DNA from: Candidatus Omnitrophota bacterium
GTDB taxonomy: Bacteria > Omnitrophota > Gorgyraeia > B26-G9
Direction of reading: 5' to 3'
Assembly: GCA_043814605.1 (NCBI GenBank)
Contig: JBDRJV010000037.1
Location: 31,899-95,898 of the forward strand
DNA length: 64,000 nucleotides
In this document: piece after piece, positions 18,132-60,939 of the stretch
Layout of the letters: each line of letters begins with the position of its first letter
How positions within the stretch are numbered: position 1 is the stretch's first letter
Notes under the pieces: generated by a model
What the model was told of the DNA's origin: nothing
Database searches by the model: none
What the model saw: the letters and a program-made list of their open reading frames with translations, nothing else
Position numbers and translations under genes: made by a program

Positions 18132-18968
18132 GTGAGGCTAATTAAAGTTTTCAATCTTTGCGTTGTTTTTTTTGCGGTTTTTAGCTTTTTGTCAAAATAC
18201 TGTTTAGAAGCTGCAGATAATCAATGTTTTAAAATAGTTCCTTTTAAAGTAGGTCAATGGGTCGAGTATCAGATCGTTAGTTTAGAGGAGCAAAGTAAAG
18301 ATAATAGATATAAAATTTCAGTTTTAAATGAAGAAATCATTGATGGAGAAATTTATTTTTGGATTGGTTTTGATGTTTTTAACCAAGGAAAAAGAGAAAT
18401 ATCATTTAAGGCCTTAATGAAAAATTTTAAAACAGATGACTTAAAGCTTAAAAAAGAGCAATTTATAGCAGAAGGGATAATAAGTTTTTTCAAAGCTTCG
18501 GATAAACTTTATATAAAAGCAGGTGGTAGCGAGTGGGTAGAGGTTAATCCTAAAACGTACTTTTTAAATTTGAAACTATTAGAAAATTCGTTCTATGAAC
18601 AGGTTCCGGATGAACTAGGGAAAGTTGATTATTCTAAACTTGTGATGATTGGGAGGGAAGAGATTAATGTTTCTTCTCAGGAATTTAACTGTTTGCATTA
18701 CCAAGTAAAAACTAATCCTTCGGATGAATTTTCTGATGAAGGGATAGATTTGTGGCGCTCAGATAAAGTGCCTTTTTTAGGAATTGTAAAATTAGAATTT
18801 TCAAAAACTGATTACGATCTTAAGTTGCGCTATCAAGAAAGCAAAATCCTTGCTTCAAAAAGTATTTTTTATAAAATTTTTTATTACTTATTTAACAAAT
18901 TACCTAAAGATACGCATACTCGTAAAGATATTTATAAAATAAATTTGATTGATTATAAAAATTATTAA
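18132..18968 (+). CDS. Secreted hypothetical protein (paralogue-like to 60954-61658)
   Basis: GTG start and a signal-like N-terminus (LCVVFFAVFSFLSKYCLEAA). Blocks VPFKVGQWVEYQ, QEFNCLHYQV and DLW..FLGIVKL are collinear with FPLAIGNEWHYEQ, GDFFNCYKLI and GWYGKGVGKVK in 60954-61658. Confidence 0.4.
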   Translation: MRLIKVFNLCVVFFAVFSFLSKYCLEAADNQCFKIVPFKVGQWVEYQIVSLEEQSKDNRYKISVLNEEIIDGEIYFWIGFDVFNQGKREISFKALMKNFKTDDLKLKKEQFIAEGIISFFKASDKLYIKAGGSEWVEVNPKTYFLNLKLLENSFYEQVPDELGKVDYSKLVMIGREEINVSSQEFNCLHYQVKTNPSDEFSDEGIDLWRSDKVPFLGIVKLEFSKTDYDLKLRYQESKILASKSIFYKIFYYLFNKLPKDTHTRKDIYKINLIDYKNY

Positions 18969-49119: not shown

Positions 49120-50097
49120 ATGAATAAAACTGTAAGCGTTCTGATTACCTCTAAGGAAAATAAATCTGAACAACTGAAGCATTTGCTGCATAGCTTGGTG
49201 GTTCAGGATATTCGATACCTAAGAATTTACTTAATTTTAGATCGCAAAAATGATCTATTAATTAATGATATCCAAAAAATATTAAAACCAGTGGAATTTT
49301 TTTTTAATGATAACCATTGTATTACTTATATTCAAAATAAAATTATGAAAAATTTAAATAGTGAATTAATTTTGTTATTAAATGATGATATTATATTAGA
49401 AAATTATTTTATTTCTAGTTTAACTGATTCAATTGATAAGAATGAAAAAATAGGTATTTGCTGTGGGAAAATAAAGCGTATGGATAAAATAACTATTGAT
49501 AGCGCAGGGCAATTTTTAGCCCGGAGTCGAAAACCACTAGATAGGGGTTATGGTCAAAAAGATAAAGGGCAGTTTGATAGTGCAGAATATATTTTTGGAG
49601 CTTGTGGGGCAGCAGTTTTGTATCGTAAAAAAATGCTAGAAAGTATTCAAATAACTCCGGGTGAATATTTTGATAATGATTACCATCTATTTTACGAGGA
49701 TTTAGATATTGCCTGGCGGGCGCAAAACTTAGGCTGGAAGGTATTTTATGATCCAAAAGCTGTTTGCTATCATGTTCGCGGAGCTACAGTAAAACAAAAT
49801 AAACCAAAATTTAGTTTTTTAAACAATTTTAATTTTGCTTGGCTTCCGAATAGTTTGAAGGTAGATGTAATAAAAAACCGTTATATGACTATAATAAAAA
49901 ATGATAAATTAAGTAATTTTTTAATTAATTTACCTTTCATTTTATTTTATGATCTTAAAGTTTTTATTTACTGCTTATTTTTTTGCCCGATTGTCATTAA
50001 AAATTGCTTAAATAAAGTGCCTTTGATTATGAACGCTTGGAAAAAAAGAAAATATTACTACTTAAAATATGAAAAAATAAGACAGAAGGAATGCTAA
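49120..50097 (+). CDS. GT2 glycosyltransferase (paralogue of 12250-13143)
   Basis: VSVLITSKEN, LLNDDIIL, MDKITIDSAGQFL and EDLDIAWRAQNLGWKVFYDPKAVCYH, collinear with MDKITIDTIGLKL and DDFDIAWRAQRIGCKGFYVPNAVCWH in the other copy. Confidence 0.75.
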   Translation: MNKTVSVLITSKENKSEQLKHLLHSLVVQDIRYLRIYLILDRKNDLLINDIQKILKPVEFFFNDNHCITYIQNKIMKNLNSELILLLNDDIILENYFISSLTDSIDKNEKIGICCGKIKRMDKITIDSAGQFLARSRKPLDRGYGQKDKGQFDSAEYIFGACGAAVLYRKKMLESIQITPGEYFDNDYHLFYEDLDIAWRAQNLGWKVFYDPKAVCYHVRGATVKQNKPKFSFLNNFNFAWLPNSLKVDVIKNRYMTIIKNDKLSNFLINLPFILFYDLKVFIYCLFFCPIVIKNCLNKVPLIMNAWKKRKYYYLKYEKIRQKEC

Positions 50098-51755
50098 AAA
50101 TAATAAATTATTTAGGATTAATTCTTTTAATTTTTAGGCCGTTTATTTGCGAACAAGTTTTTCCCGTTTGTGGAATTATGTTTAATCTAGTCTTTACGGT
50201 AGTTTTTTTCTCGAAGTTAATTGTTGATAAAAATATTAAAACTAGTAAAACTATTGTAATCATTATTTTTTTTATTTTTGTGTTTTTTATATGCCAAATT
50301 ATTTTTTCTATAAATATTTATAACACCTGTAATGTTTTATGCTATTTATTTACTTTAGTTATAATTTATATGTTCGTTGATTCTTTAGAAAGTGAAAAAC
50401 AAGAATTCTTAATTAAAGCAATGGTTGCGATAAGTTTTATAATTGCTTTACGGGGAGCATATCAATATTTATTTGGTTTAAACTTGATCAATAAAATTTT
50501 TTCAGAAGAACAAATTGCAAAAGAAAGTTTGTATGCTTTTGAATTACTTAAGCGAAGAAGAATCGTTTCCTGGTTTACTACCCCAAATTTATTAGCCAGT
50601 TATTTACTTATGTTTATCCCGCTTGCTTTAGCTCAAATAGATTTCGATAAAAATAATATTTTAAAAGTCAAGAATATATTTTATTTTTTAGGTTTTATTT
50701 GTATATTTTTTGCGGTTTTGTTTGCTAAAGTTATTGCTGTTTATCTGGTAATTATTTTCTTAATTTCATGTTTTTTTATAAAAAAATTTACAATTAAATC
50801 TCAGATTGCCCATAAAAATAGTTTTTTGTTTATAGCCGCTTTTTTTGTGATTTCAGGCGGAGTTTTTTTTGCGGAACGAGCCAGTGCATTTTTACTCAAT
50901 GATATTAATAATTCAATAATTCAAAGATTATACTATTGGCAGGCAACTTTAAGGATAATAAAAAATAATTTATTCTTTGGGTTAGGGCTGGGAAATTTTG
51001 GGATTGTATATCCTTTTTACAAAAATAGTTACGCAAATGAAACCATATATGTACATAATAGTTATTTGCAATTGTTTGCTGAAACCGGAATTATATTTTT
51101 TCTAACTGCAGTTAGTTTACTAGGTTGCAGTTTGAGAAATTTATTTAAAAATGAAGATCAAAAGTTGACAATAGCTTTAAGTTTTAGTTGTGCGGCATTT
51201 TTAATCCATAATCTTGTCAGTTATTCTTTTTTTATTATGCAGGTTTGCTTTGTTTGGGTTGTGTTGTTTGCCTGTCTATTTTCAAAAGTTACTAACCGTG
51301 AGGAAAATTATAAAAAGCTTAAAAAACTATTCAATTTTTTAGTTAAGGCAGCTATTTCCTTCATAATAATTAGTAATGGTTTATTTTTAATTAGTGAAAT
51401 TAATCTTAAAAAAGGAATAGAATTATTAAAAAAAGCTCAATATGATCAGGCAAGGCAGAGTATAAAATATGCTTTAAATTTTATTCCTTTTAATGATGTT
51501 GCGTATTATTGTTTAGCAATTAATGCAAAGCGTGAAGCAAATAATAATTTTTCAAATGAAGTAGTTAAAAATTTTAAAAAAGCAATTATTCATAATCCGT
51601 ATTATGTATATTATTACTTTTATTTAGGCGAGTACTACAAGCAGCATGATTTTTTAGCATGGGCAAAAGATTATTTAGCTATGGCTTCTAGGCTATATCC
51701 GACAAATAAAAAATTTAGGATTGAATTGGATGCGGTTATCAAGAAGGGGCAGTAA
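50091..51755 (+). CDS. O-antigen ligase/polymerase-like (Wzy_C) membrane protein fused to a C-terminal TPR-like domain
   Basis: ~10 TM helices. The loop block GLGLGNFGIVYPFYKNSYANETIYVHNSYLQLFAETGIIFF matches the H-N-x-(Y/F)-L-x3-E-x-G signature of the family. The C-terminal ~150 aa is helical repeat-like (AQYDQARQSIKYALNFIP..AIIHNPYYVYYYFYLGEYYKQ). Confidence 0.65.
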   Translation: MLKIINYLGLILLIFRPFICEQVFPVCGIMFNLVFTVVFFSKLIVDKNIKTSKTIVIIIFFIFVFFICQIIFSINIYNTCNVLCYLFTLVIIYMFVDSLESEKQEFLIKAMVAISFIIALRGAYQYLFGLNLINKIFSEEQIAKESLYAFELLKRRRIVSWFTTPNLLASYLLMFIPLALAQIDFDKNNILKVKNIFYFLGFICIFFAVLFAKVIAVYLVIIFLISCFFIKKFTIKSQIAHKNSFLFIAAFFVISGGVFFAERASAFLLNDINNSIIQRLYYWQATLRIIKNNLFFGLGLGNFGIVYPFYKNSYANETIYVHNSYLQLFAETGIIFFLTAVSLLGCSLRNLFKNEDQKLTIALSFSCAAFLIHNLVSYSFFIMQVCFVWVVLFACLFSKVTNREENYKKLKKLFNFLVKAAISFIIISNGLFLISEINLKKGIELLKKAQYDQARQSIKYALNFIPFNDVAYYCLAINAKREANNNFSNEVVKNFKKAIIHNPYYVYYYFYLGEYYKQHDFLAWAKDYLAMASRLYPTNKKFRIELDAVIKKGQ

Positions 51756-51757
51756 AG

Positions 51758-53491
51758 ATGAATTATGCTAAGTATAAGGCTTTTTGCAGAGTAATATATT
51801 GTTATCAAGAATATTGGATTTGGATTGTTTTAGGTATAATAATAAATATTCTAATATTGTTTGTTGTTAATAAGCTTTTAGAAAAGAGTAAGAATTTAAG
51901 CATTAAAAAGTATATAAAAAAAATAAATTTAAATAGAATTGATTATTTATTACTTTTTATGCTAACATTTATTTTTTTTATTTGGAAAATTACTAATATT
52001 AGTAAAGAAAATGTTGATAGTATGGAATCTTTCAACATGCAATTTAATTCTTTATTGAGTACAAATATTATAAAGTTTTTAGATACTTCAATAGTAATTG
52101 CACATAAGTTGATTTATGCAGTTATGCTTAATCTTGTACAAATATTTTGTGCTCCTGAAAATTTAGTTTTTTTGTATAGATTTATTTCTTTTGGTTTTGG
52201 AGTATTATGTTCTTTACTGCTGTTTAAATTTTCAATCAGAGTATTTCAGAATAAATTGATTGCATACCTAGGGTTCATTTTATTCAACTTAAATGCGCTT
52301 TTTTTGTTTTATTGCCGAAGAATTGAAGTTTATTCTATATTTTGTTTTTTTGTATTATTAAGTTTTTATGATTTCTGGAGAATATTTATTGATCGGGATA
52401 AAAATAAGACCTTACGATATGGCATATGGATAATTATTGTATTTTGCTTACATGATACAGGCGTTGTAGTTATTTTTTCGCAGGCTCTTGCTTTATTTTT
52501 TTTAAACAGGAAGCAGCCACTTGAAACTAGAAATTATTTATATTTAAAGTTTATGCAATCGGTACTTGTTTTTGCTTGTTTATTTTTTTTGTTGGGACCT
52601 ATTTTTTGTGCATCAATTATTAGTAATCATTTAATTCTTTACAAAGGTGCTTGGGAAAATAATTTTTATTTAGGTATGGAAAAATTACCGGAACAAATAA
52701 ATACTATGCTGAATTTAATTTTTGGGATGCCCATATTTACGATAGGGCTATTTAGTTTTCCCTTATTTTTTGCAGTTTTTTCGTTAATTAAAAAAAATAA
52801 TAATTTTTTTTGGCTTTTATTAAGCATATTGATATCAAGTATTCTATTTCAGGCAACTTTCATTTATATGTTTTATATTAAAGTTAATGCTTGTTATTTT
52901 AATATTAGGCATTTATTATGGATAGTTCCCTTTATTATCATGATGTATAGTTTTGGTTTTTGTGATTTATGTTTTTTGAGTAATAAAAATTATAAGAAAA
53001 TTTTAGGGTACAGTTTTTTAATTATTATTTTAAGCTCAGGAATTGTGAAATCAAATACTGTTATTTATAGCAATAAAACTCCTGATTACGAGAAAGCATT
53101 TTATTATATTAAAGATAAATTCAAAGATGGAGATTTTTTAGGTTGGCTGTGTTCTTTTACCAGTGATGTATTTTTTATTCACACTAAAAAAAATGATATT
53201 TTTTATGATCATGATAATACCATTTTAGATGAAAGAAGTGCCGGGGTTATATTTAATAATATCGCTTTAAAGCAAAAAAAATTTAAAAGATTTTGGGTGA
53301 TTGTTGCAAAAGAAGATTATTTTGGAGTTGATCATATGAATTTGGAATTTATTGATAAATGCGTTAATTTTTTAAAAAAAGAATTTAAAGAAATTTCTTG
53401 CGTGAAGATGAATAAAATTGATATCTACTTATTTGAATCAACTAGGGAAAGACTGGGGGGTATAATTGAAATTAACAGAAGAATTTTTTAA
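51758..53491 (+). CDS. Polytopic GT-C-type glycosyltransferase (ArnT/PMT_2-like)
   Basis: 577 aa with more than 10 hydrophobic helices, followed by a ~150 aa soluble C-terminal domain. Same overall architecture as the other six GT-C candidates. Architecture-only call. Confidence 0.4.
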   Translation: MNYAKYKAFCRVIYCYQEYWIWIVLGIIINILILFVVNKLLEKSKNLSIKKYIKKINLNRIDYLLLFMLTFIFFIWKITNISKENVDSMESFNMQFNSLLSTNIIKFLDTSIVIAHKLIYAVMLNLVQIFCAPENLVFLYRFISFGFGVLCSLLLFKFSIRVFQNKLIAYLGFILFNLNALFLFYCRRIEVYSIFCFFVLLSFYDFWRIFIDRDKNKTLRYGIWIIIVFCLHDTGVVVIFSQALALFFLNRKQPLETRNYLYLKFMQSVLVFACLFFLLGPIFCASIISNHLILYKGAWENNFYLGMEKLPEQINTMLNLIFGMPIFTIGLFSFPLFFAVFSLIKKNNNFFWLLLSILISSILFQATFIYMFYIKVNACYFNIRHLLWIVPFIIMMYSFGFCDLCFLSNKNYKKILGYSFLIIILSSGIVKSNTVIYSNKTPDYEKAFYYIKDKFKDGDFLGWLCSFTSDVFFIHTKKNDIFYDHDNTILDERSAGVIFNNIALKQKKFKRFWVIVAKEDYFGVDHMNLEFIDKCVNFLKKEFKEISCVKMNKIDIYLFESTRERLGGIIEINRRIF

Positions 53492-53696
53492 AAAAGGAAA
53501 ACTTAACGTGTTTTATAAGGGAAATTAAGTTTCCATTGCAAGTTTTTTTGAAATTAATAGTATTTCAAAAGAGAAATTGATCCGAACCATTATTAGAAGT
53601 GCTAAAGGTTCCAGAAATATCAGGGCTAAGAACTGATTTAAATTTTATACGATTGGAATTTAATATTTATTTTTTAAATATAAAACGCAAGAAATT

Positions 53697-54290
53697 ATGA
53701 AAAAAATTTATATAATTCTAAATTATTTACTCCAGTTTCTATCCTGTCCGATATCAGCTCATAAAAAATTTATTAGGAAGGAAATTGTTAAAGAAATAAA
53801 TATAAATTTAAAAAAAAATATTTTAGATTTTGGATGTGGTCACGGAATATTTTCTGGTCTTTTTAAAAATACAAATATCAATTATATTGAACTTGATTGT
53901 GATTTAAATTCACTGCTGTTTGCAAAATATATACATCAAAATAACTTATATTTGTGTGCAGGAGAATTGCTGTGTTTTAAGCAGAATATCTTTGATTATA
54001 TTATACTAAATAATGTTCTGCATCATATGGATAAAAAATCAATTATTAAATTATTTGACGAAATCATACGGGTGCTTAAAAATAAGAGAAAAGTTATAAT
54101 AATTGAATTGCTGCCTTTTGAAAAACAAAGAGGATTTTTTTTAAAAATTGTTACCTCTTTAGAAAAAAAAATAAAAAAAATTTCTTATGTTTCTGATGAT
54201 TTTTTAACAGAAATTGCAAAAAAATATTTTAGAAATATTAAAAAATTAGAAGTAAGCCGCAATTTTATTTCTTATATTTTAGAAAACTAG
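53697..54290 (+). CDS. Class I SAM-dependent methyltransferase (small)
   Basis: Motif I is ILDFGCGHGIFS, with ELDCD as the acidic loop and FDYIILNNVLHHM also present. Resembles 3569-4117. Confidence 0.65.
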   Translation: MKKIYIILNYLLQFLSCPISAHKKFIRKEIVKEININLKKNILDFGCGHGIFSGLFKNTNINYIELDCDLNSLLFAKYIHQNNLYLCAGELLCFKQNIFDYIILNNVLHHMDKKSIIKLFDEIIRVLKNKRKVIIIELLPFEKQRGFFLKIVTSLEKKIKKISYVSDDFLTEIAKKYFRNIKKLEVSRNFISYILEN

Positions 54291-54466
54291 CCATTTAAAA
54301 TTAGCTTGAAAATTATCGTGGAAGCTGCTTTTTTAAATCAACTCCCAATTTAAAAAAAAGTAAATAAAGTAAAAAATATCTTTTCTACAATATATTGTGT
54401 CTATTCTTTCTGTAACCTACTATAAATAGTGTTGTTAAATATTTTTAAAAAAACGATATTTTTTTA

Positions 54467-54494
54467 TTGACGTCCCTAAAAAATAGCGTATATT
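54467..54494 (+). promoter_or_regulatory. Sigma-70-like promoter of the dcw cluster (TTGACG - 16 nt - TATATT)
   Basis: TTGACG at 54467-54472 and TATATT at 54489-54494 with a 16-nt spacer. It sits 37 bp upstream of the mraZ ATG and just 5' of the MraZ boxes. AT-rich DNA produces many -10 look-alikes, so confidence is moderate. Confidence 0.45.
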
Positions 54495-54501
54495 TAATAA
54501 T

Positions 54502-54527
54502 GTGGTTAAAAGTGGAGGAAAGTGGAG
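54502..54527 (+). promoter_or_regulatory. MraZ operator: three direct GTGG repeats with exact 10-bp phasing
   Basis: GTGG occurs at 54502, 54512 and 54522. The last two are exact 9-mers, AAAGTGGAG at 54509-54517 and 54519-54527. The position (between promoter and mraZ) and the 10-bp periodic GTG(G/T) repeats match the described MraZ binding-site organisation. Confidence 0.6.
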
Positions 54528-54530
54528 TAG

Positions 54531-54971
54531 ATGTTTTATGGCGAATTTGAACATTCATTAGATAAAAAAAGCCGTGTGATTATTCCGGCTAAATTTCGGG
54601 AAGCATTTAAAGAAAATTTTGTCGAAAAATTTTTCGTTACCCGAGGGTTAGATAGCTGTTTGTTTTTATTCACGGAAGAAGAATGGAAAAAACAGGAACA
54701 AAAATTTAAAGCACTTTCTTTTACCAAGCCGGAAGCAAGGAAATTTAATCGTTTGTTTTTTTCTGGTGCCAGTGAAATTATCTGCGACTCACAAGGAAGA
54801 GTTTTGATTCCTCAATACCTTAAGGATTTCGCGCAAATACAAAAGGATGTTGTAATTATTGGAGTTTCTAATCGAATAGAAATCTGGAGTAAAAATCGCT
54901 GGAAGGAATTTTATGAAAATACTAGAGGAACCTTTGAGGATACTGCCGAAAAACTCATGGGTTTGGAATGA
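54531..54971 (+). CDS. mraZ: Transcriptional regulator MraZ
   Basis: MFYGEFEHSLDKKSRVIIPAKFRE. Two DxxxR motifs (DKKSR and DSQGR) lie in duplicated SpoVT/AbrB-like halves. It is the first gene of the dcw order. Confidence 0.95.
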   Translation: MFYGEFEHSLDKKSRVIIPAKFREAFKENFVEKFFVTRGLDSCLFLFTEEEWKKQEQKFKALSFTKPEARKFNRLFFSGASEIICDSQGRVLIPQYLKDFAQIQKDVVIIGVSNRIEIWSKNRWKEFYENTRGTFEDTAEKLMGLE

Positions 54972-54978
54972 AGAGGAA

Positions 54979-55866
54979 ATGGGCCGACACACCCCGGTAA
55001 TGTATGATGAAGTAGTAGCGTACCTGAAGCTTTCACCAGGGAAGGTGATTGTTGATTGTACTTTGGGGGAAGGGGGGCATAGTGAAGGCATACTGAGAAA
55101 GATAACGCCAGGCGGACAGCTCATTGGCATAGATCAGGATGATGATGCTTTGAGTATAACCCGCCTGCGTCTTTCTCGCTTTGAAGATTCTGTGAGGCTA
55201 GTTCATGATAATTTTCAAAATATTAGGGTTATTTTGAAACGTTTGGGATTAGATAAAGTGGATGGTTTTGTTATGGATCTAGGAATATCTTCTTTGCAAT
55301 TATCTGCTCCGGAACGCGGGTTTAGTTTTCAAATCGATGGCCCTCTCAATATGCGTATGGATAAAAAAGCTCAAATTACTGCTTTTGATTTAGTCAATAA
55401 TTTAAGTGAAGAAGAAATTGCGAATGTTATATATATTTTTGGTCAAGAGAGATTTAGCCGTAGAATTGCACGTAACATTGTACAACAGCGCAACAAACAT
55501 GTAATTACAACCACTCAAGAACTGGCTAATTTAATAATCGAATCTGTTCCCAAACATCAAAGATTTAGAAAAATTCATCCGGCAACCAGAACATTTATGG
55601 CGTTACGGATTGCAGTTAACAGAGAATTGGAAGTCTTACAAAGCACACTTAAAGATGCGGTTGATTTACTGAATCCCGGAGGGAGGATTTGTGTGATTTC
55701 TTTTCATTCTTTAGAAGACAGGATTGTAAAGAATGAATTTAAGTCCCAAGCCAGAAATTCCGTAATAAAAATAATTACAAAAAAACCGCTTGTGCCAACA
55801 CAAAACGAAATCCAGGAAAATCATCGTAGTCGTAGTGCAAAACTCCGGGTGGCTGAGAAAATATAA
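54979..55866 (+). CDS. rsmH: 16S rRNA (cytosine1402-N4)-methyltransferase RsmH
   Basis: HTPVMYDEV, DCTLGEGGHSE, DLGISSLQL, FGQERFSRRIA and SFHSLEDRIVK. The track ORF starts at 54913 inside mraZ. ATG 54979 follows the mraZ stop and a gaagagg RBS. Confidence 0.95.
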   Translation: MGRHTPVMYDEVVAYLKLSPGKVIVDCTLGEGGHSEGILRKITPGGQLIGIDQDDDALSITRLRLSRFEDSVRLVHDNFQNIRVILKRLGLDKVDGFVMDLGISSLQLSAPERGFSFQIDGPLNMRMDKKAQITAFDLVNNLSEEEIANVIYIFGQERFSRRIARNIVQQRNKHVITTTQELANLIIESVPKHQRFRKIHPATRTFMALRIAVNRELEVLQSTLKDAVDLLNPGGRICVISFHSLEDRIVKNEFKSQARNSVIKIITKKPLVPTQNEIQENHRSRSAKLRVAEKI

Positions 55867-55898: not shown

Positions 55899-56273
55899 GT
55901 GAGCTTAAAAAAGACACTCATATTTGCTGTAATAACCACTTGTTTATCTATAAGTTATGTTAATCAACAAATTTCTGTGGTTAAACTAAGTTATCAACTT
56001 CGGAGTAAAGAAAAAAACCTGTCTGAACTAATTGACCAAAATAGAATTTTATTATATAATAATGCCAGCCTAAAATCACCACAGTATTTAGCCGGAATGC
56101 TCAAAGAAAATGATCAAGAATTAACATTTCCGGATACTACTGTTGTGGCAAAAGTAAAAATGGTGAGAAAAGATCACAGGCAGCAGGTGAAAACAACGAA
56201 AAGTAACTGGAGAACTAAATTGCTTGATTTGTTTATTCCTAAAGCACAAGCAGCGTTAGATAAAAGACAATAG
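55899..56273 (+). CDS. ftsL: Cell division protein FtsL-like
   Basis: 124 aa with a GTG start after aggggg. It has a single N-terminal TM helix (LIFAVITTCLSISYV) followed by a coiled-coil-like segment. It sits in the canonical position between rsmH and ftsI. Confidence 0.7.
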   Translation: MSLKKTLIFAVITTCLSISYVNQQISVVKLSYQLRSKEKNLSELIDQNRILLYNNASLKSPQYLAGMLKENDQELTFPDTTVVAKVKMVRKDHRQQVKTTKSNWRTKLLDLFIPKAQAALDKRQ

Positions 56274-56335
56274 TTTTTCTCTTCTGCTTCACCAAAAATT
56301 AATTACTTCCTAAATATAAGGATATATTAAAAAAA

Positions 56336-58021
56336 GTGTATAAAAAGGCGCAAAAAATTCGCCTGAGTATAGTTTTTTTCTTTTTTCTTTTAATTCTCCT
56401 AATTATTCTAGTTCGTCTGCTGAATATTCAGGTTCTGAATAATCAGCATTATTTAGAGCTAGCTGATTCGCAACATCATCTAACCTTAACTCTTTATCCG
56501 CAAAGAGGATTAATCTATGACCGAAATCTGAAGGTTTTGGCGTTGAGTTTAAAAGTTTTTTCTGTGTATGCCGAGCCAAGATTAATTGATAATAAATTAG
56601 AAGTAGCGCAAAAATTGGCGGATCTATTAGATTTAGATTATGATAAAACTTTAACCCAGCTTCAAAAGGATAAATCATTTGTTTGGATAAAAAGAAGGAT
56701 TGAGCAAAATCAGGCACAAGCAGTTAATGATTTAAAATTGTATGGAGTGGGATTATTAAAGGAAAATAAACGCTATTATCCGAATAATGAATTAGCAGCG
56801 CATGTATTAGGATTTACGGGAATTGATGATTCCGGGCTGGAAGGACTGGAACTAGAGTATGATTCATATTTAAAAGGAGAATCAGGTTATCGGTCGTTAC
56901 TGCGTGATGCTAAGCAAAGGATGTTGCCTGCTTTTGAGTATGAGTATGTTCCGGCAATGGATGGATATAATTTAGTCTTAACAATTGATCAGATAATTCA
57001 ACATATTGTTGAGGAAGAGTTAAATAAAGCATTTGATAAAAATCAGGCAAAGGGAGCTTCCGTACTTGTTATGAATCCTGAAAACGGAGAGATTTTTGCT
57101 TTAGCTAATCGCCCGGGGTATGATTTAAATTTATTTGAAACTGCAACTTCAGACCAAAGACGCAATCGGGCAGTGTGTGATTATTTTGAACCTGGTTCTA
57201 CCTTTAAAATTATTACAGCCACCGCAGCTTTGTCCGAAAAAGCTGTTGAACTTGATGAGGTATTTTTTTGCGAAAATGGAACTTATCAAATTTCCCGGCA
57301 TACATTGCATGATCATCGGCCACACGGGGATTTAACATTTGTTGAGGTTATTGAAAAATCAAGTAATATTGGTACAGTAAAAGTCGCGCAAAAACTGGGA
57401 GCAGAAGTATTATATAAATATATTAAAAATTTTGAATTTGCGGAAAAAACTAGTATTGATTTATCCGGGGAAACTGCCGGGTTTTTAAGGCCGGTAGCTG
57501 GTTGGTCAAAATTATCAATTGCAGCTATTCCCATTGGACATGAAATTGGAGTTTCAGTTTTACAAATGGCCAAAGCTATGGCGGTAATTGCCAATGGCGG
57601 ATATTTAGTTAAACCGCATCTAGTAAATAAAATAATTGATAATAACCAGCAAATCATAAAGGAATTTGATTATTCACAAAAAAAATCCATTATTTCACCG
57701 GATATTGCTAAAAAAATGCAGGAAATTTTAAAAGGAGTTGTTGAACGCGGTACGGCTAAAAAAGCAAAAATTGATGGATATACAGCTGCAGGAAAAACAG
57801 GTACAGCCCAAAAATTAAATCCTCAAGGCGGGTACTCACATGATCTGTTTATCGCATCTTTTATCGGATTTGCTCCGGTCAAAAATCCAAAGGTTGTAAT
57901 TGCGGTTGTTTTTGATGAACCCAAGCCGGTTTATTATGGCGGGGTTGTGTGTGCTCCAATTTTTAAAAATATAGCCGAAAAAGTGTTAAGATATATGAAT
58001 ACAGAAAAAGAAAGTAAATAA
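56336..58021 (+). CDS. ftsI: Penicillin-binding protein (class B transpeptidase, FtsI/PBP3-like)
   Basis: N-terminal TM anchor. SxxK (GSTFK), SxN (SSN) and KTG (KTGTA) motifs appear in the correct order. Canonical dcw position. Confidence 0.9.
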   Translation: MYKKAQKIRLSIVFFFFLLILLIILVRLLNIQVLNNQHYLELADSQHHLTLTLYPQRGLIYDRNLKVLALSLKVFSVYAEPRLIDNKLEVAQKLADLLDLDYDKTLTQLQKDKSFVWIKRRIEQNQAQAVNDLKLYGVGLLKENKRYYPNNELAAHVLGFTGIDDSGLEGLELEYDSYLKGESGYRSLLRDAKQRMLPAFEYEYVPAMDGYNLVLTIDQIIQHIVEEELNKAFDKNQAKGASVLVMNPENGEIFALANRPGYDLNLFETATSDQRRNRAVCDYFEPGSTFKIITATAALSEKAVELDEVFFCENGTYQISRHTLHDHRPHGDLTFVEVIEKSSNIGTVKVAQKLGAEVLYKYIKNFEFAEKTSIDLSGETAGFLRPVAGWSKLSIAAIPIGHEIGVSVLQMAKAMAVIANGGYLVKPHLVNKIIDNNQQIIKEFDYSQKKSIISPDIAKKMQEILKGVVERGTAKKAKIDGYTAAGKTGTAQKLNPQGGYSHDLFIASFIGFAPVKNPKVVIAVVFDEPKPVYYGGVVCAPIFKNIAEKVLRYMNTEKESK

Positions 58022-59527
58022 ATGTTAGCTTCAGAAATAATAAAACTTCTAAAAATTAAGCCCCAGGCTAAAAATTTTGTAGATTTTGAAGTCAAAGGCA
58101 TTAGTATTGATTCTCGTAATGTCGCAAATGATTTTTGTTTTATCGCTCAAGACGGAACTAAAACAAACGGATATGAATTTATTCAAGCGGCGATAGAAAA
58201 AGGGGCACGTTTGATTATTTATCCTGAATTTTATCCTGAACCTAAAATTAATTCCTTAGAATTAGCAAAGAAGACAATTTTCCTAAAAACTGATAATCTG
58301 CGCAAAGTTACCGGGCTAATTGCGGCGGAATTTTTCCAGAGGCCTTCCCGTAATTTACAAATGATTGGGGTAACAGGCACTAACGGAAAAACAACAGTTA
58401 CTTTTTTTATTGAACATTTACTCAAAAAAAATCAAATTAAAACGGGCATGATTTCTACTGTCTATTACAAAATTGATGATCATATTATTGATGCGACCCA
58501 TACTACCCCGGATGCGATAAAACTACAGCAGTTATTTTTTAATATGATTAATCATAATATTTCCCATTGTGTTATGGAAGTTTCCTCCCATGCTTTAGAC
58601 CAGAAAAGGGTTTCAGAAATTGATTTCCAATGTGCAGTGTTTACGAATTTGAGTCAAGATCATTTAGATTACCATGTGGATATGGAAAATTATTTTAAGA
58701 CAAAAGCACAATTGTTTAAACGTCTTAGTAAAAATAGTTTTGCCGTAATAAATACGGATGATCCTTGCGGTATCCGGCTTAAAAAAATTACTCAAGCAAA
58801 AATTATTGGTTATGCGGTTATGGATAAAAATGCAACTGTCCGGGCACAAAATATAGTTTTTGATTTAAATTCAACAACTTTTGATATAATCACACCCGCA
58901 GGTATACTGCCGGTTAAGACTAAATTTATCGGCCGCTATAATATTTATAATATTTTAGCTTGTATTTGTGTAGGGCTTGCCCAAAATATTGAATTAAATT
59001 CTATTGTTAAAGCAATCCAAACCATGGATTCTGTTCCGGGAAGATTAGAAAGATTATCAAATAATAACATTTTTGAGATTTTTGTTGATTATGCTCATAC
59101 GGATGATGCATTAACTAAAGTTTTGACAACTTTAAAAGAACTAAAACCGCATAAGATTATTACAGTTTTTGGCTGCGGGGGAAATCGAGATACAAAAAAA
59201 AGGCCGCTTATGGGTAAAGCCGCAAGTTTGTTGTCAGATTTTTTGATTTTAACTAATGATAATCCGCGTAATGAAAACCCGGAAAAAATCATTGCAGATA
59301 TTCAGTCAGGGTTTGAGGTTAGTTTTAAAAATTTTGAAGTAATTTTAGACAGAAAAAAAGCAATCGAAAAAGCAATCACAAGAGCGCAACAGGATGACTT
59401 TATTTTAGTTGCCGGTAAAGGACATGAAAATTACCAAATTTTTGGTGATAAGAAAATTGATTTTGATGATCGAAAAATAATAAAGGATCTCCTGCTGACT
59501 AGCCCCAAGCTTACCTTAGGAGAATGA
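58022..59527 (+). CDS. murE: UDP-N-acetylmuramoyl-L-alanyl-D-glutamate--2,6-diaminopimelate ligase
   Basis: GVTGTNGKTT P-loop and DYAHTDDAL. The DNPR motif (TNDNPRNE) is characteristic of meso-DAP-adding MurE. Position is after ftsI. Confidence 0.9.
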   Translation: MLASEIIKLLKIKPQAKNFVDFEVKGISIDSRNVANDFCFIAQDGTKTNGYEFIQAAIEKGARLIIYPEFYPEPKINSLELAKKTIFLKTDNLRKVTGLIAAEFFQRPSRNLQMIGVTGTNGKTTVTFFIEHLLKKNQIKTGMISTVYYKIDDHIIDATHTTPDAIKLQQLFFNMINHNISHCVMEVSSHALDQKRVSEIDFQCAVFTNLSQDHLDYHVDMENYFKTKAQLFKRLSKNSFAVINTDDPCGIRLKKITQAKIIGYAVMDKNATVRAQNIVFDLNSTTFDIITPAGILPVKTKFIGRYNIYNILACICVGLAQNIELNSIVKAIQTMDSVPGRLERLSNNNIFEIFVDYAHTDDALTKVLTTLKELKPHKIITVFGCGGNRDTKKRPLMGKAASLLSDFLILTNDNPRNENPEKIIADIQSGFEVSFKNFEVILDRKKAIEKAITRAQQDDFILVAGKGHENYQIFGDKKIDFDDRKIIKDLLLTSPKLTLGE

Positions 59528-60939
59528 TGGTTACACCGGTTGTAAGCCGGGAACGGAAAGATATGTTTAGACTTAATGAAATAGTTAAATGGACAAACGC
59601 ACAATCAGTTAATATGAGTTCAGATAGGCCTATCTGCGGAATTTCGATTGATTCGCGTACAATAAAGAAGGCAGAATTATTTGTGGCGATTTGTGGTGAT
59701 AAATTTAATGGGCATGATTATTTATTTGAGGCAGAAGAAAAAAGAGCAAGTGCTGTTTTAATCAATAAAAAATGGGCAGATTTCCACCCGGATCAGATTA
59801 ACGGGCTTTCCTGTCCGGTAATTTTAGTGGAAAATACAAATAACGCATTGATGGATATGGCAAAAGGACACCGGAAAAAATTTAATATTCCAGTAATTGC
59901 TGTAACTGGATCAAACGGGAAAACCACAACCAAAGAAATGCTCGCAGAAGTTCTCAGTGCCCGATTTAAGGTATTAAAGAGCAAGGCTTCTTTTAATAAT
60001 AATATTGGTGTTCCGCTGAGTATCCTCGAACTTAATGCTGGACATGATGCTGCTGTATTAGAATTAGGCATGAATCATCCCGGTGAAATTCGCATTTTGA
60101 GTTCAATTGTTAGGCCAAATATTGCAATTATCACTAATGTTGCGGCAGCTCATCTCGGATTTTTCAACAGCGTTGATGAGATTATCAGTGCTAAATGTGA
60201 ATTAATTGAAAAAGCAAATGAACTTGATTTAGTGATTTCTAATGCTGATTGCCTAGATTTGTTTCATAAAATTAAAGAACATATTTTATCTGCTGTAGGG
60301 ATAGGAATTAAAAATAAGTGCTCTTACCAGGCATCCAATGTTATCAGCCGTCAAGAAGGGGTAGCTTTTACCTTGAACTTAAAGGACACATTTAGGTTGA
60401 ATTTATTGGGTGAGCATAATGTTTACAATGCGTTGTGCGCGATTGCGGTTGCGGATCATTTTAAAATTGATATGAGTATAGTACGGGAAAGACTAAAAGA
60501 AATAAAACCGGCTAAAATGAGAATGGAAAGAATTAATTTTCAAGGTATAGAAATAATTGCCGATTGCTATAATGCTAACCCCCAGTCTGTAACCGCAGCG
60601 ATTGAAACGCTTGCGGCGATGAGTTATAAGAAAAGACGGATATTTATTTTAGGCGATATGCTTGAATTAGGAACACATAGTGATAAATTCCATGCACAAA
60701 TCGGAGAACTTTTTACGGATATAAGAATAGATAAGCTGGTTACAATCGGTGAAAAAGCAGCGTTAAGCGCAGAGGTTGCGCTTAAATTAGGAAATAAAAA
60801 AAATAATGTGTTTATGTATGATTCCGTAGAATTAGCTCAGACAGAAATATTTCAAATGCTAAAAGAGGGGGATGTGGTTTTAATCAAAGGATCACGCCTA
60901 ATGCAATTAGAAAAACTTATTCCTGGTTATAAATTATAG
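59524..60939 (+). CDS. murF: UDP-N-acetylmuramoyl-tripeptide--D-alanyl-D-alanine ligase
   Basis: AVTGSNGKTTTKEM, LELGMNHPGEI, DCYNANP and GDMLELG. ATGA overlap with murE. An alternative start is at 59563 (MFRLNEI). Confidence 0.9.
   Translation: MMVTPVVSRERKDMFRLNEIVKWTNAQSVNMSSDRPICGISIDSRTIKKAELFVAICGDKFNGHDYLFEAEEKRASAVLINKKWADFHPDQINGLSCPVILVENTNNALMDMAKGHRKKFNIPVIAVTGSNGKTTTKEMLAEVLSARFKVLKSKASFNNNIGVPLSILELNAGHDAAVLELGMNHPGEIRILSSIVRPNIAIITNVAAAHLGFFNSVDEIISAKCELIEKANELDLVISNADCLDLFHKIKEHILSAVGIGIKNKCSYQASNVISRQEGVAFTLNLKDTFRLNLLGEHNVYNALCAIAVADHFKIDMSIVRERLKEIKPAKMRMERINFQGIEIIADCYNANPQSVTAAIETLAAMSYKKRRIFILGDMLELGTHSDKFHAQIGELFTDIRIDKLVTIGEKAALSAEVALKLGNKKNNVFMYDSVELAQTEIFQMLKEGDVVLIKGSRLMQLEKLIPGYKL

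Follow-up and report, generated by a model that had tools for sequence, protein, structure and literature searches.

Do three GTGG repeats that stand between a promoter-like sequence and the start codon of mraZ, the gene that opens the dcw cluster, form a binding site for the MraZ protein, a ribosome-binding element, or a coincidence of base composition? This question is raised by positions 54467-54530 of a 64-kb stretch of Candidatus Omnitrophota DNA, here called the window (64,000 nucleotides in full). Our analysis indicates that the segment is very probably the principal promoter of the dcw operon together with its MraZ operator, a reading in which MraZ binding, the transcription start site and the sign of regulation are predictions drawn from sequence and from homologous systems. 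The features of the locus are as follows.

54437-54466, + strand: A/T-tract block AAATATTTTTAAAAAAACGATATTTTTTTA, adjoining the -35 hexamer; a possible UP element.
54467-54472, + strand: putative -35 hexamer TTGACG, aligning with an invariant TTGAC in close relatives.
54489-54494, + strand: putative -10 hexamer TATATT, separated from the -35 hexamer by a 16-nt spacer; GTATATT or GTATAGT in close relatives.
54500-54503, + strand: predicted start of transcription, some 6-9 nt past the -10 hexamer, at the edge of or inside box 1; placed by promoter geometry only.
54502-54505, + strand: putative MraZ box 1, GTGG in the context aatGTGGtt, 7 nt after the -10 hexamer; invariant in close relatives.
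54509-54517, + strand: putative MraZ box 2, AAAGTGGAG, with its GTGG core at 54512-54515; includes the start of a GGAGG (54514-54518) that lies 12 nt before the ATG.
54519-54527, + strand: putative MraZ box 3, AAAGTGGAG, with its GTGG core at 54522-54525; contains a GGAG (54524-54527) that lies 3 nt before the ATG.
54531-54971, + strand: mraZ, 146 aa (Pfam PF02381, E=1.3e-41), coding for the predicted cognate repressor.
54979-55866, + strand: rsmH/mraW (Pfam Methyltransf_5, E=2.5e-111), the first operon gene after mraZ.
55899-60939, + strand: remaining proximal dcw genes, namely an ftsL-sized ORF (124 aa), a class B PBP gene (ftsI-like) and two Mur ligase genes taken as murE and murF.

The three GTGG boxes lie directly upstream of mraZ, all on the + strand, with 6-nt spacers and a 10-bp period, in agreement with the MraZ box consensus of at least three direct GTG(G/T) (or TGGGN) boxes separated by 6-nt spacers (PMC12957436; 10.1101/2022.02.09.479790). 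The predicted transcription start has analogues in the mapped start inside box 1 of M. genitalium (PMC12957436) and in the start overlapped by the repeats in B. cenocepacia (PMC7761207). The mraZ ATG at 54531 directly follows an in-frame TAG (54528-54530), so the start cannot lie further upstream, and this stop codon together with the conserved MFYGE N-terminus rules out an upstream alternative start codon. The GTGG core of box 3 ends 5 nt, and its GTGGAG 3 nt, before the ATG. Box 1 is without the AAA flank present at boxes 2 and 3, and there is no fourth in-phase box, the corresponding positions reading ATTT (54492) and TGTT (54532). The preliminary description had proposed the TTGACG-16 nt-TATATT promoter candidate, listed GTGG at 54502, 54512 and 54522 with an exact AAAGTGGAG repeat at 54509 and 54519, and placed the last box 3 nt from the ATG in overlap with GGAG; the promoter coordinates proved exact (54467-54494), and direct reading of the sequence confirmed every box position and the overlap.

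The gene order downstream is that of a canonical dcw cluster. The genes at 55899-60939 are presumed to be under the mraZ promoter, co-transcription being suggested by their tight packing on the same strand. In its longest form the rsmH ORF begins at 54913, with a 59-nt overlap with mraZ, and the corresponding start is the one chosen by gene callers in relatives. The match to the Pfam MraW profile begins at residue 3 of the protein translated from the ATG at 54979, just past the mraZ stop, so the annotated rsmH start is probably too far upstream. Directly upstream of mraZ lies a small SAM-methyltransferase gene (53697-54290; Pfam Methyltransf_23/11), preceded by a 577-aa membrane-protein ORF (51758-53491). 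A Wzy_C (O-antigen ligase-like) gene adjoins mraZ on this side in the relatives L082, L084 and L085, and the Wzy_C match of the window is found at 50091-51755; the methyltransferase gene, and possibly the ORF at 51758-53491, thus have the appearance of local insertions. Over the window as a whole, a greedy non-overlapping call placed all 50 ORFs of at least 120 aa on the + strand.

The MraZ protein encoded in the window is 100% identical to NCBI 'MraZ [Candidatus Omnitrophota bacterium]', and the next ~100 homologues are mostly from Omnitrophota. A phmmer search against PDB sequences returned the MraZ proteins of M. pneumoniae and M. genitalium (E=2.5e-21 to 1e-18), with solved structures matched at 2.5e-21 and 8e-19. 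Cryo-EM of M. genitalium MraZ showed that Lys13, Arg15 and Arg86 contact the bases of the GTG(T/G) box and that the transcription start lies inside box 1 (PMC12957436). K13, R15 and R90 of the window protein align with these residues (K13, R15 and R86 in 9qlr/9qlg). The cognate protein thus carries the base-contacting residues along with two DXXXR motifs (D11-R15 and D86-R90), and all 28 Omnitrophota homologues compared have D11, K13, R15, D86 and R90. The conservation of the contact residues indicates that the cognate regulator is intact and should recognise the same core.

Searches of both strands of the 64-kb window revealed a single occurrence of GTGG-N6-GTGG-N6-GTGG. The strict triplet appeared in 0 of 100 dinucleotide-preserving shuffles, and approximately 2e-4 triplets are expected at the frequency with which GTGG was observed. 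A search with the looser box GTG[GT] gave the same single site, and the two perfect copies of AAAGTGGAG in the window are both located there. When up to two mismatches were allowed in a search for other MraZ sites that could form a regulon in the window, one more was obtained, intragenic at 18523 and within chance expectation. The GTGG-N6-GTGG doublets at 18523-18546 and 59683-59696 were rejected as operators; both are inside ORFs with no third box and are probably due to chance. The doublet at 59683-59696 falls within the murF-like gene, the second of the two Mur ligase genes in the dcw cluster, and a double repeat is likewise present in the dcw cluster of B. subtilis, at mraY/murD (10.1101/2022.02.09.479790). 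The promoter candidate matches the consensus at 10 of 12 positions and is the best match in 53400-55000. Promoter-like matches are not enriched in this 29.5% GC DNA (12 found vs 8.3 expected from shuffles), and since a consensus match alone is unremarkable at such a base composition, the credibility of the promoter derives from its positional conservation in relatives.

Upstream regions were compared among 81 mraZ loci, comprising the window and 80 loci from species-representative genomes. The sample consists mostly of Omnitrophota or of MAGs labelled PVC/Planctomycetia, and L069-L080 include Macrococcus, Neobacillus, Brevibacillus and Paenibacillus. Most of the loci display the three GTGG boxes at 10-bp phase already between -90 and +6. 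The strict triplet was found at most 260 nt upstream of mraZ in 63 of the 81 loci, window included, and a triplet with one core mismatch (GTAG, ATGG, GTGT or GTGA) in 11 further loci. Elsewhere in the same loci, the strict triplet occurred zero times in 246 kb per strand. The arrangement is thus conserved in orthologous loci and specific to the region upstream of mraZ. Its strict form is absent from 18 of the 81 loci, so it is not universal even within the Omnitrophota phylum. The AAA flank of box 2 is present in 85-93% of the loci.

Whether the triple GTGG might have arisen by chance, or through the composition of an intergenic region rich in purines and in A/T, can be judged from these counts. 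GTGG is five times commoner on the + than on the - strand of the window (121 vs 25), and there are two other doublets, both intragenic (18523 and 59683). The small expected number of triplets, the empty shuffles and the recurrence of the triplet in 63-74 of the 81 orthologous loci, across at least two phyla and nowhere else in those loci, argue against a chance origin and leave it hardly any probability.

A close set was formed by the window and six relatives (L082-L085, L001 and L002) whose MraZ proteins are 80-92% identical, L082-L085 having come from exact-protein look-ups. All seven sequences agree in the -35 TTGAC, the -10 GTATA.T and each of the three GTGG boxes. The spacer between the -35 and -10 hexamers and that between boxes 1 and 2 diverge freely, while the box 2-3 segment GTGGAGGAAAGTGGAG is nearly invariant. 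Box 2 is GTGGAGG in six of the seven and GTGGAAG in L002; in box 3, AAGTGGAG is invariant in all seven, and the first A of its flank is a G in L002. Invariant boxes and hexamers set among divergent spacers are the mark of selection acting on these elements in particular. The preliminary description had proposed an alignment of related mraZ upstream regions and named absence of the repeats from close relatives as evidence against an operator; the repeats are firmly retained there and, in strict form, in most of the wider sample. Its overall reading of a dcw promoter with an MraZ operator is supported in that the box sequence and 10-bp phasing match the published consensus, the relatives keep the boxes and MraZ keeps its DNA-contact residues.

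The relation of the boxes to the promoter was examined in 49 loci with a promoter match of at least 10/12. The -35 hexamer is TTGACA in 47 of these and TTGACG in the window and L035, and the -10 hexamer is mostly TATACT; at the aligned -10 position, other Omnitrophota have TATACT, TATAAT or TATAGT. The two hexamers are separated by 17 nt in all 49 loci except the window (16 nt) and four loci (18 nt), and the deviating 16-nt spacer of the window was counted against the promoter reading. Box 1 begins 10-12 nt after the -10 hexamer in 30 of the 49 loci, the window having 7 nt within an overall range of 1-16 nt. Between box 3 and the start codon lie 0 to 87 nt, or ~140-205 nt in L014, L015, L041 and L047. 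The boxes are therefore fixed relative to the -10 hexamer and variable relative to the start codon, which indicates that they belong to the promoter and not to the ribosome-binding region.

Several loci with other layouts were observed in the same comparison. L041, L047, L014 and L015 have long leaders, with the promoter and a strict three-box operator 165-228 nt upstream of mraZ; L045 and L056 also have long leaders, with one-mismatch triplets only, at -211 and -125. The last ~35 nt before mraZ in L041, L045, L047 and L056 contain a conserved hairpin-like CCCTTCTCGGTGGGGAGAGAGGCTAA motif that could sequester the Shine-Dalgarno (SD) sequence. A sub-clade of five loci (L006, L009, L010, L012 and L022) has two GTGGG boxes only, following CCCATAA-N3-4-CCCATAAA (inverted ATGGG boxes), in a region ~70 nt upstream of mraZ at locus coordinates of roughly 1440-1500. 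The RNA of this region folds into a nested hairpin in which each GUGGG is paired with CCCAU (-16.8 to -22.7 kcal/mol), with z=-2.7 in L010 and -3.5 in L006, the other three loci being not significant. This sub-clade could have a variant of the operator in which boxes are inverted, or else a leader with RNA structure.

The overlap of the boxes with SD-like sequence requires a closer look at the leader RNA. The predicted leader (54501-54545) is purine-rich and unstructured (-0.4 kcal/mol, z=+1.0), and the region 54200-54700 gave no Rfam match at E<=1; a known RNA family or a structured leader was ruled out on the basis of these two results. About 8 of 50 genes in the window have a GGAG or GAGG core at most 25 nt from the putative start, with few clear SDs, at a spacing of 6-10 nt. 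Both the GGAGG (12 nt from the ATG) and the GGAG (3 nt) of the mraZ leader fall outside this spacing. In loci where box 3 lies at most 9 nt from the start codon, positions +1, +2 and +3 after the box 2 core are A in 83%, G in 86% and G in 66%, vs only 40%, 68% and 36% for the same A/G/G where this distance is at least 20 nt; where box 3 directly adjoins the ATG, the box 2 GGAGG has an ideal spacing of 7-8 nt. This association between leader length and GGAGG, a comparison not corrected for phylogeny, is suggestive and compatible with box 2 doubling as an SD. The G at +2 is frequent also in long-leader loci, consistent with its being part of the MraZ box.

We considered on these grounds whether the repeats are primarily translational, acting as tandem SD-like GGAG/GGAGG elements or ribosome standby sites and not as a DNA operator. 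The position of GGAGG and GGAG inside boxes 2 and 3, the more frequent GTGGAGG in box 2 of short-leader loci and the unstructured, purine-rich leader are in keeping with such a role. However, the invariant part of the repeat is GTGG and not GGAG, and the distance of the boxes is fixed to the -10 hexamer and not to the start codon: at least 25 loci have the boxes 20 to ~205 nt away from the ATG, and in several of these a separate purine-rich AGGAG-like stretch lies nearer the start. In the window itself, spacings of 3 and 12 nt miss those of its clear SDs, in a genome stretch where few genes have an SD core at all. The same boxes are, moreover, experimentally established as MraZ DNA sites elsewhere (10.1101/2022.02.09.479790; PMC12957436). 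A primarily translational function is accordingly very improbable, and we retain the reading of the repeats as a DNA operator for MraZ.

Within that reading, a second use of the same letters is conceivable. The leader is ~30 nt long and consists almost entirely of operator, so in the transcript the ribosome-binding site is probably supplied by the GGAGG of box 2, the GGAG of box 3 or both. The overlap of the boxes with GGAG/GGAGG suggests sequence economy and not a second regulatory layer. A stronger proposal is that in this lineage the leader has been compressed until the operator became the whole 5' UTR (~30 nt) and the transcribed boxes became the ribosome-binding site, placing the 10-nt units under dual selection by MraZ on DNA and by the anti-SD on RNA. 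We regard this proposal as tentative and rather doubtful; if true, dual selection could explain the GTGGAGG form of box 2 in short-leader loci. An extreme form of it, with a further action of MraZ on the RNA of the repeats, found no support. The earlier suggestion that operator occupancy could affect the 5' UTR as well as transcription is weaker in its 5' UTR part: the overlap of boxes and SD-like sequence stands, but nothing in the data suggests an action on RNA, MraZ being a dsDNA binder, the leader unstructured and Rfam without a match.

Upstream of the -35 hexamer, the A/T tract is conserved as AAATATTTTTAAAAAA-N5-6-TTTTTTT in the six close relatives, the window reading AAATATTTTTAAAAAAA-N-TTTTTTT. 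The tract at 54437-54466 resembles an UP element and probably acts as one. Further upstream, a conserved block was observed at 54383-54440 and in the aligned regions of L082-L085, L001 and L002, with a palindrome ACCACAATATATTGTGG followed by TAACCCACTGTAAATAGTATTATTAAAT; the window copy is degenerate (ctACAATATATTGTgt ... aacctac). This block is possibly the site of another regulator or a remnant of extra CCAC/GTGG boxes. The CCAC/GTGG palindrome of the relatives was not counted in the operator as additional MraZ boxes, the window copy being degenerate.

The proposed mode of action follows from this layout. The sigma-70-type promoter TTGACG-16-TATATT, probably aided by the upstream A/T tract, would start transcription at approximately 54500-54503, placing the three direct GTGG boxes at about +1 to +24, all on the same side of the helix. 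MraZ, as an opened-ring oligomer, would insert one 'cradle' DNA-binding motif (K13, R15 and R90) into the major groove of each box. Bound in this way, it would occupy the start site and the early transcribed region and block RNA polymerase, and the predicted outcome of this operator position is negative autoregulation of mraZ-rsmH-ftsL-ftsI-murE-murF. We infer the repressing sign from the position of the operator and by analogy with E. coli, B. subtilis, M. genitalium and B. cenocepacia. In M. gallisepticum, an activating role of MraZ has reportedly been suggested, and for this reason the sign of regulation is not certain from homology alone.

The boxes could thus be a real MraZ site at which the protein serves as an activator or dual regulator instead of a simple autorepressor. 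Besides the reported case of M. gallisepticum, it can be said for this view that the DNA sequence itself gives no measure of the sign. Boxes at about +1 to +24, downstream of the -10 hexamer, are nevertheless in the position of a repressor site and poorly compatible with class I/II activation, and the same geometry is found in E. coli, B. cenocepacia (PMC7761207) and M. genitalium (PMC12957436, PMC8475190), where repression has been measured. Activation or dual control is accordingly quite improbable, and autorepression remains the predicted function of the operator.

The locus is an ordinary, textbook-type example of the established MraZ operator with three GTG(G/T) boxes and 6-nt spacers, and the understanding of MraZ is unchanged by it. 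No specific description of an MraZ operator in Omnitrophota was found in the literature searched, and the present analysis extends an experimentally defined operator architecture to Candidatus Omnitrophota, a largely uncultured phylum. The layout in this phylum is exceptionally clean, with a near-consensus TTGACA-17-TATACT promoter and box 1 mostly 10-12 nt after the -10 hexamer, and can reliably guide annotation of the dcw promoter and its start site in such MAGs. Apart from the extremely compact leader, in which operator and ribosome-binding site probably share the same sequence, nothing about the locus is even mildly unusual. Leader lengths from 0 to ~205 nt constitute a natural series for studying this sharing.

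Comparison with characterised systems places the locus among known MraZ sites. In E. coli, the MraZ operator at Pmra is said to consist of three direct repeats. Direct reading of the K-12 sequence gave TTGACA-17 nt-GTAAAC-8 nt-GTGGG-N5-GTGGG-N5-GTGGG-19 nt-ATG, and the RefSeq name of the E. coli protein is 'DNA-binding transcriptional repressor MraZ'. In both loci, a -35 and a -10 hexamer are followed, after 8 nt in E. coli and 7 nt in the window, by three coding-strand boxes at 10-bp phase and then by mraZ as the first gene, and in both the operator overlaps the start site and early transcribed region (the start here being predicted). They differ in that the E. coli boxes are GTGGG (published as TGGGN with 5-nt spacers) whereas those of the window are (AAA)GTGGAG, and in that E. 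coli has 19 nt from the last box to the ATG and a separate purine-rich stretch, compared with 5 nt after the GTGG core here. The E. coli -10 hexamer is weak (GTAAAC), whereas that of the window is TATATT.

In B. subtilis, repression by MraZ depends on three GTGG[A/T]G motifs with 4-nt spacers, a triple repeat that occurs at Pmra alone (White et al., bioRxiv 10.1101/2022.02.09.479790). The window's boxes 2 and 3 (GTGGAG) fit this motif and spacing, and in both organisms the triplet is unique to the region upstream of mraZ; box 1 of the window (GTGGTT), by contrast, departs from GTGG[A/T]G at the sixth position. The same triplet is present in the Firmicutes loci L069, L071-L074, L076 and L078-L080. 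Unlike in the window, their last box lies ~27-32 nt from the start codon, and our scan gave no near-consensus TTGACA-17-TATAAT directly upstream of their boxes.

In Mollicutes, the boxes are reportedly AAAGTG[T/G] direct repeats with 3-nt spacers. AAAGTG[T/G] direct repeats have been described for this group, together with MraZ as a repressor in M. genitalium (PMC8475190). The window resembles these sites in its AAA 5' flank, GTG(G/T) core, 10-bp period, start site within box 1 (predicted here) and conserved K13/R15/R86 (R90 here). M. genitalium differs in having four boxes, mostly GTGT, in comparison with three here, all GTGG, and the MraZ proteins are distant (phmmer E ~1e-19).

In B. cenocepacia, PmraBc carries repeats of 7 nt spaced by 3 nt, which lie past the -10 and overlap the transcription start 'as in E. 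coli', and binding of MraZ was demonstrated by EMSA (PMC7761207). The position of the repeats, downstream of the -10 hexamer and over the (here predicted) start, is the same in the window; B. cenocepacia differs in having four repeats and in being a high-GC organism. Boxes 2 and 3 of the Omnitrophota locus, both AAAGTGGAG, satisfy at once the AAA flank of the Mollicutes repeats and the GTGGAG hexamer of Bacillus.
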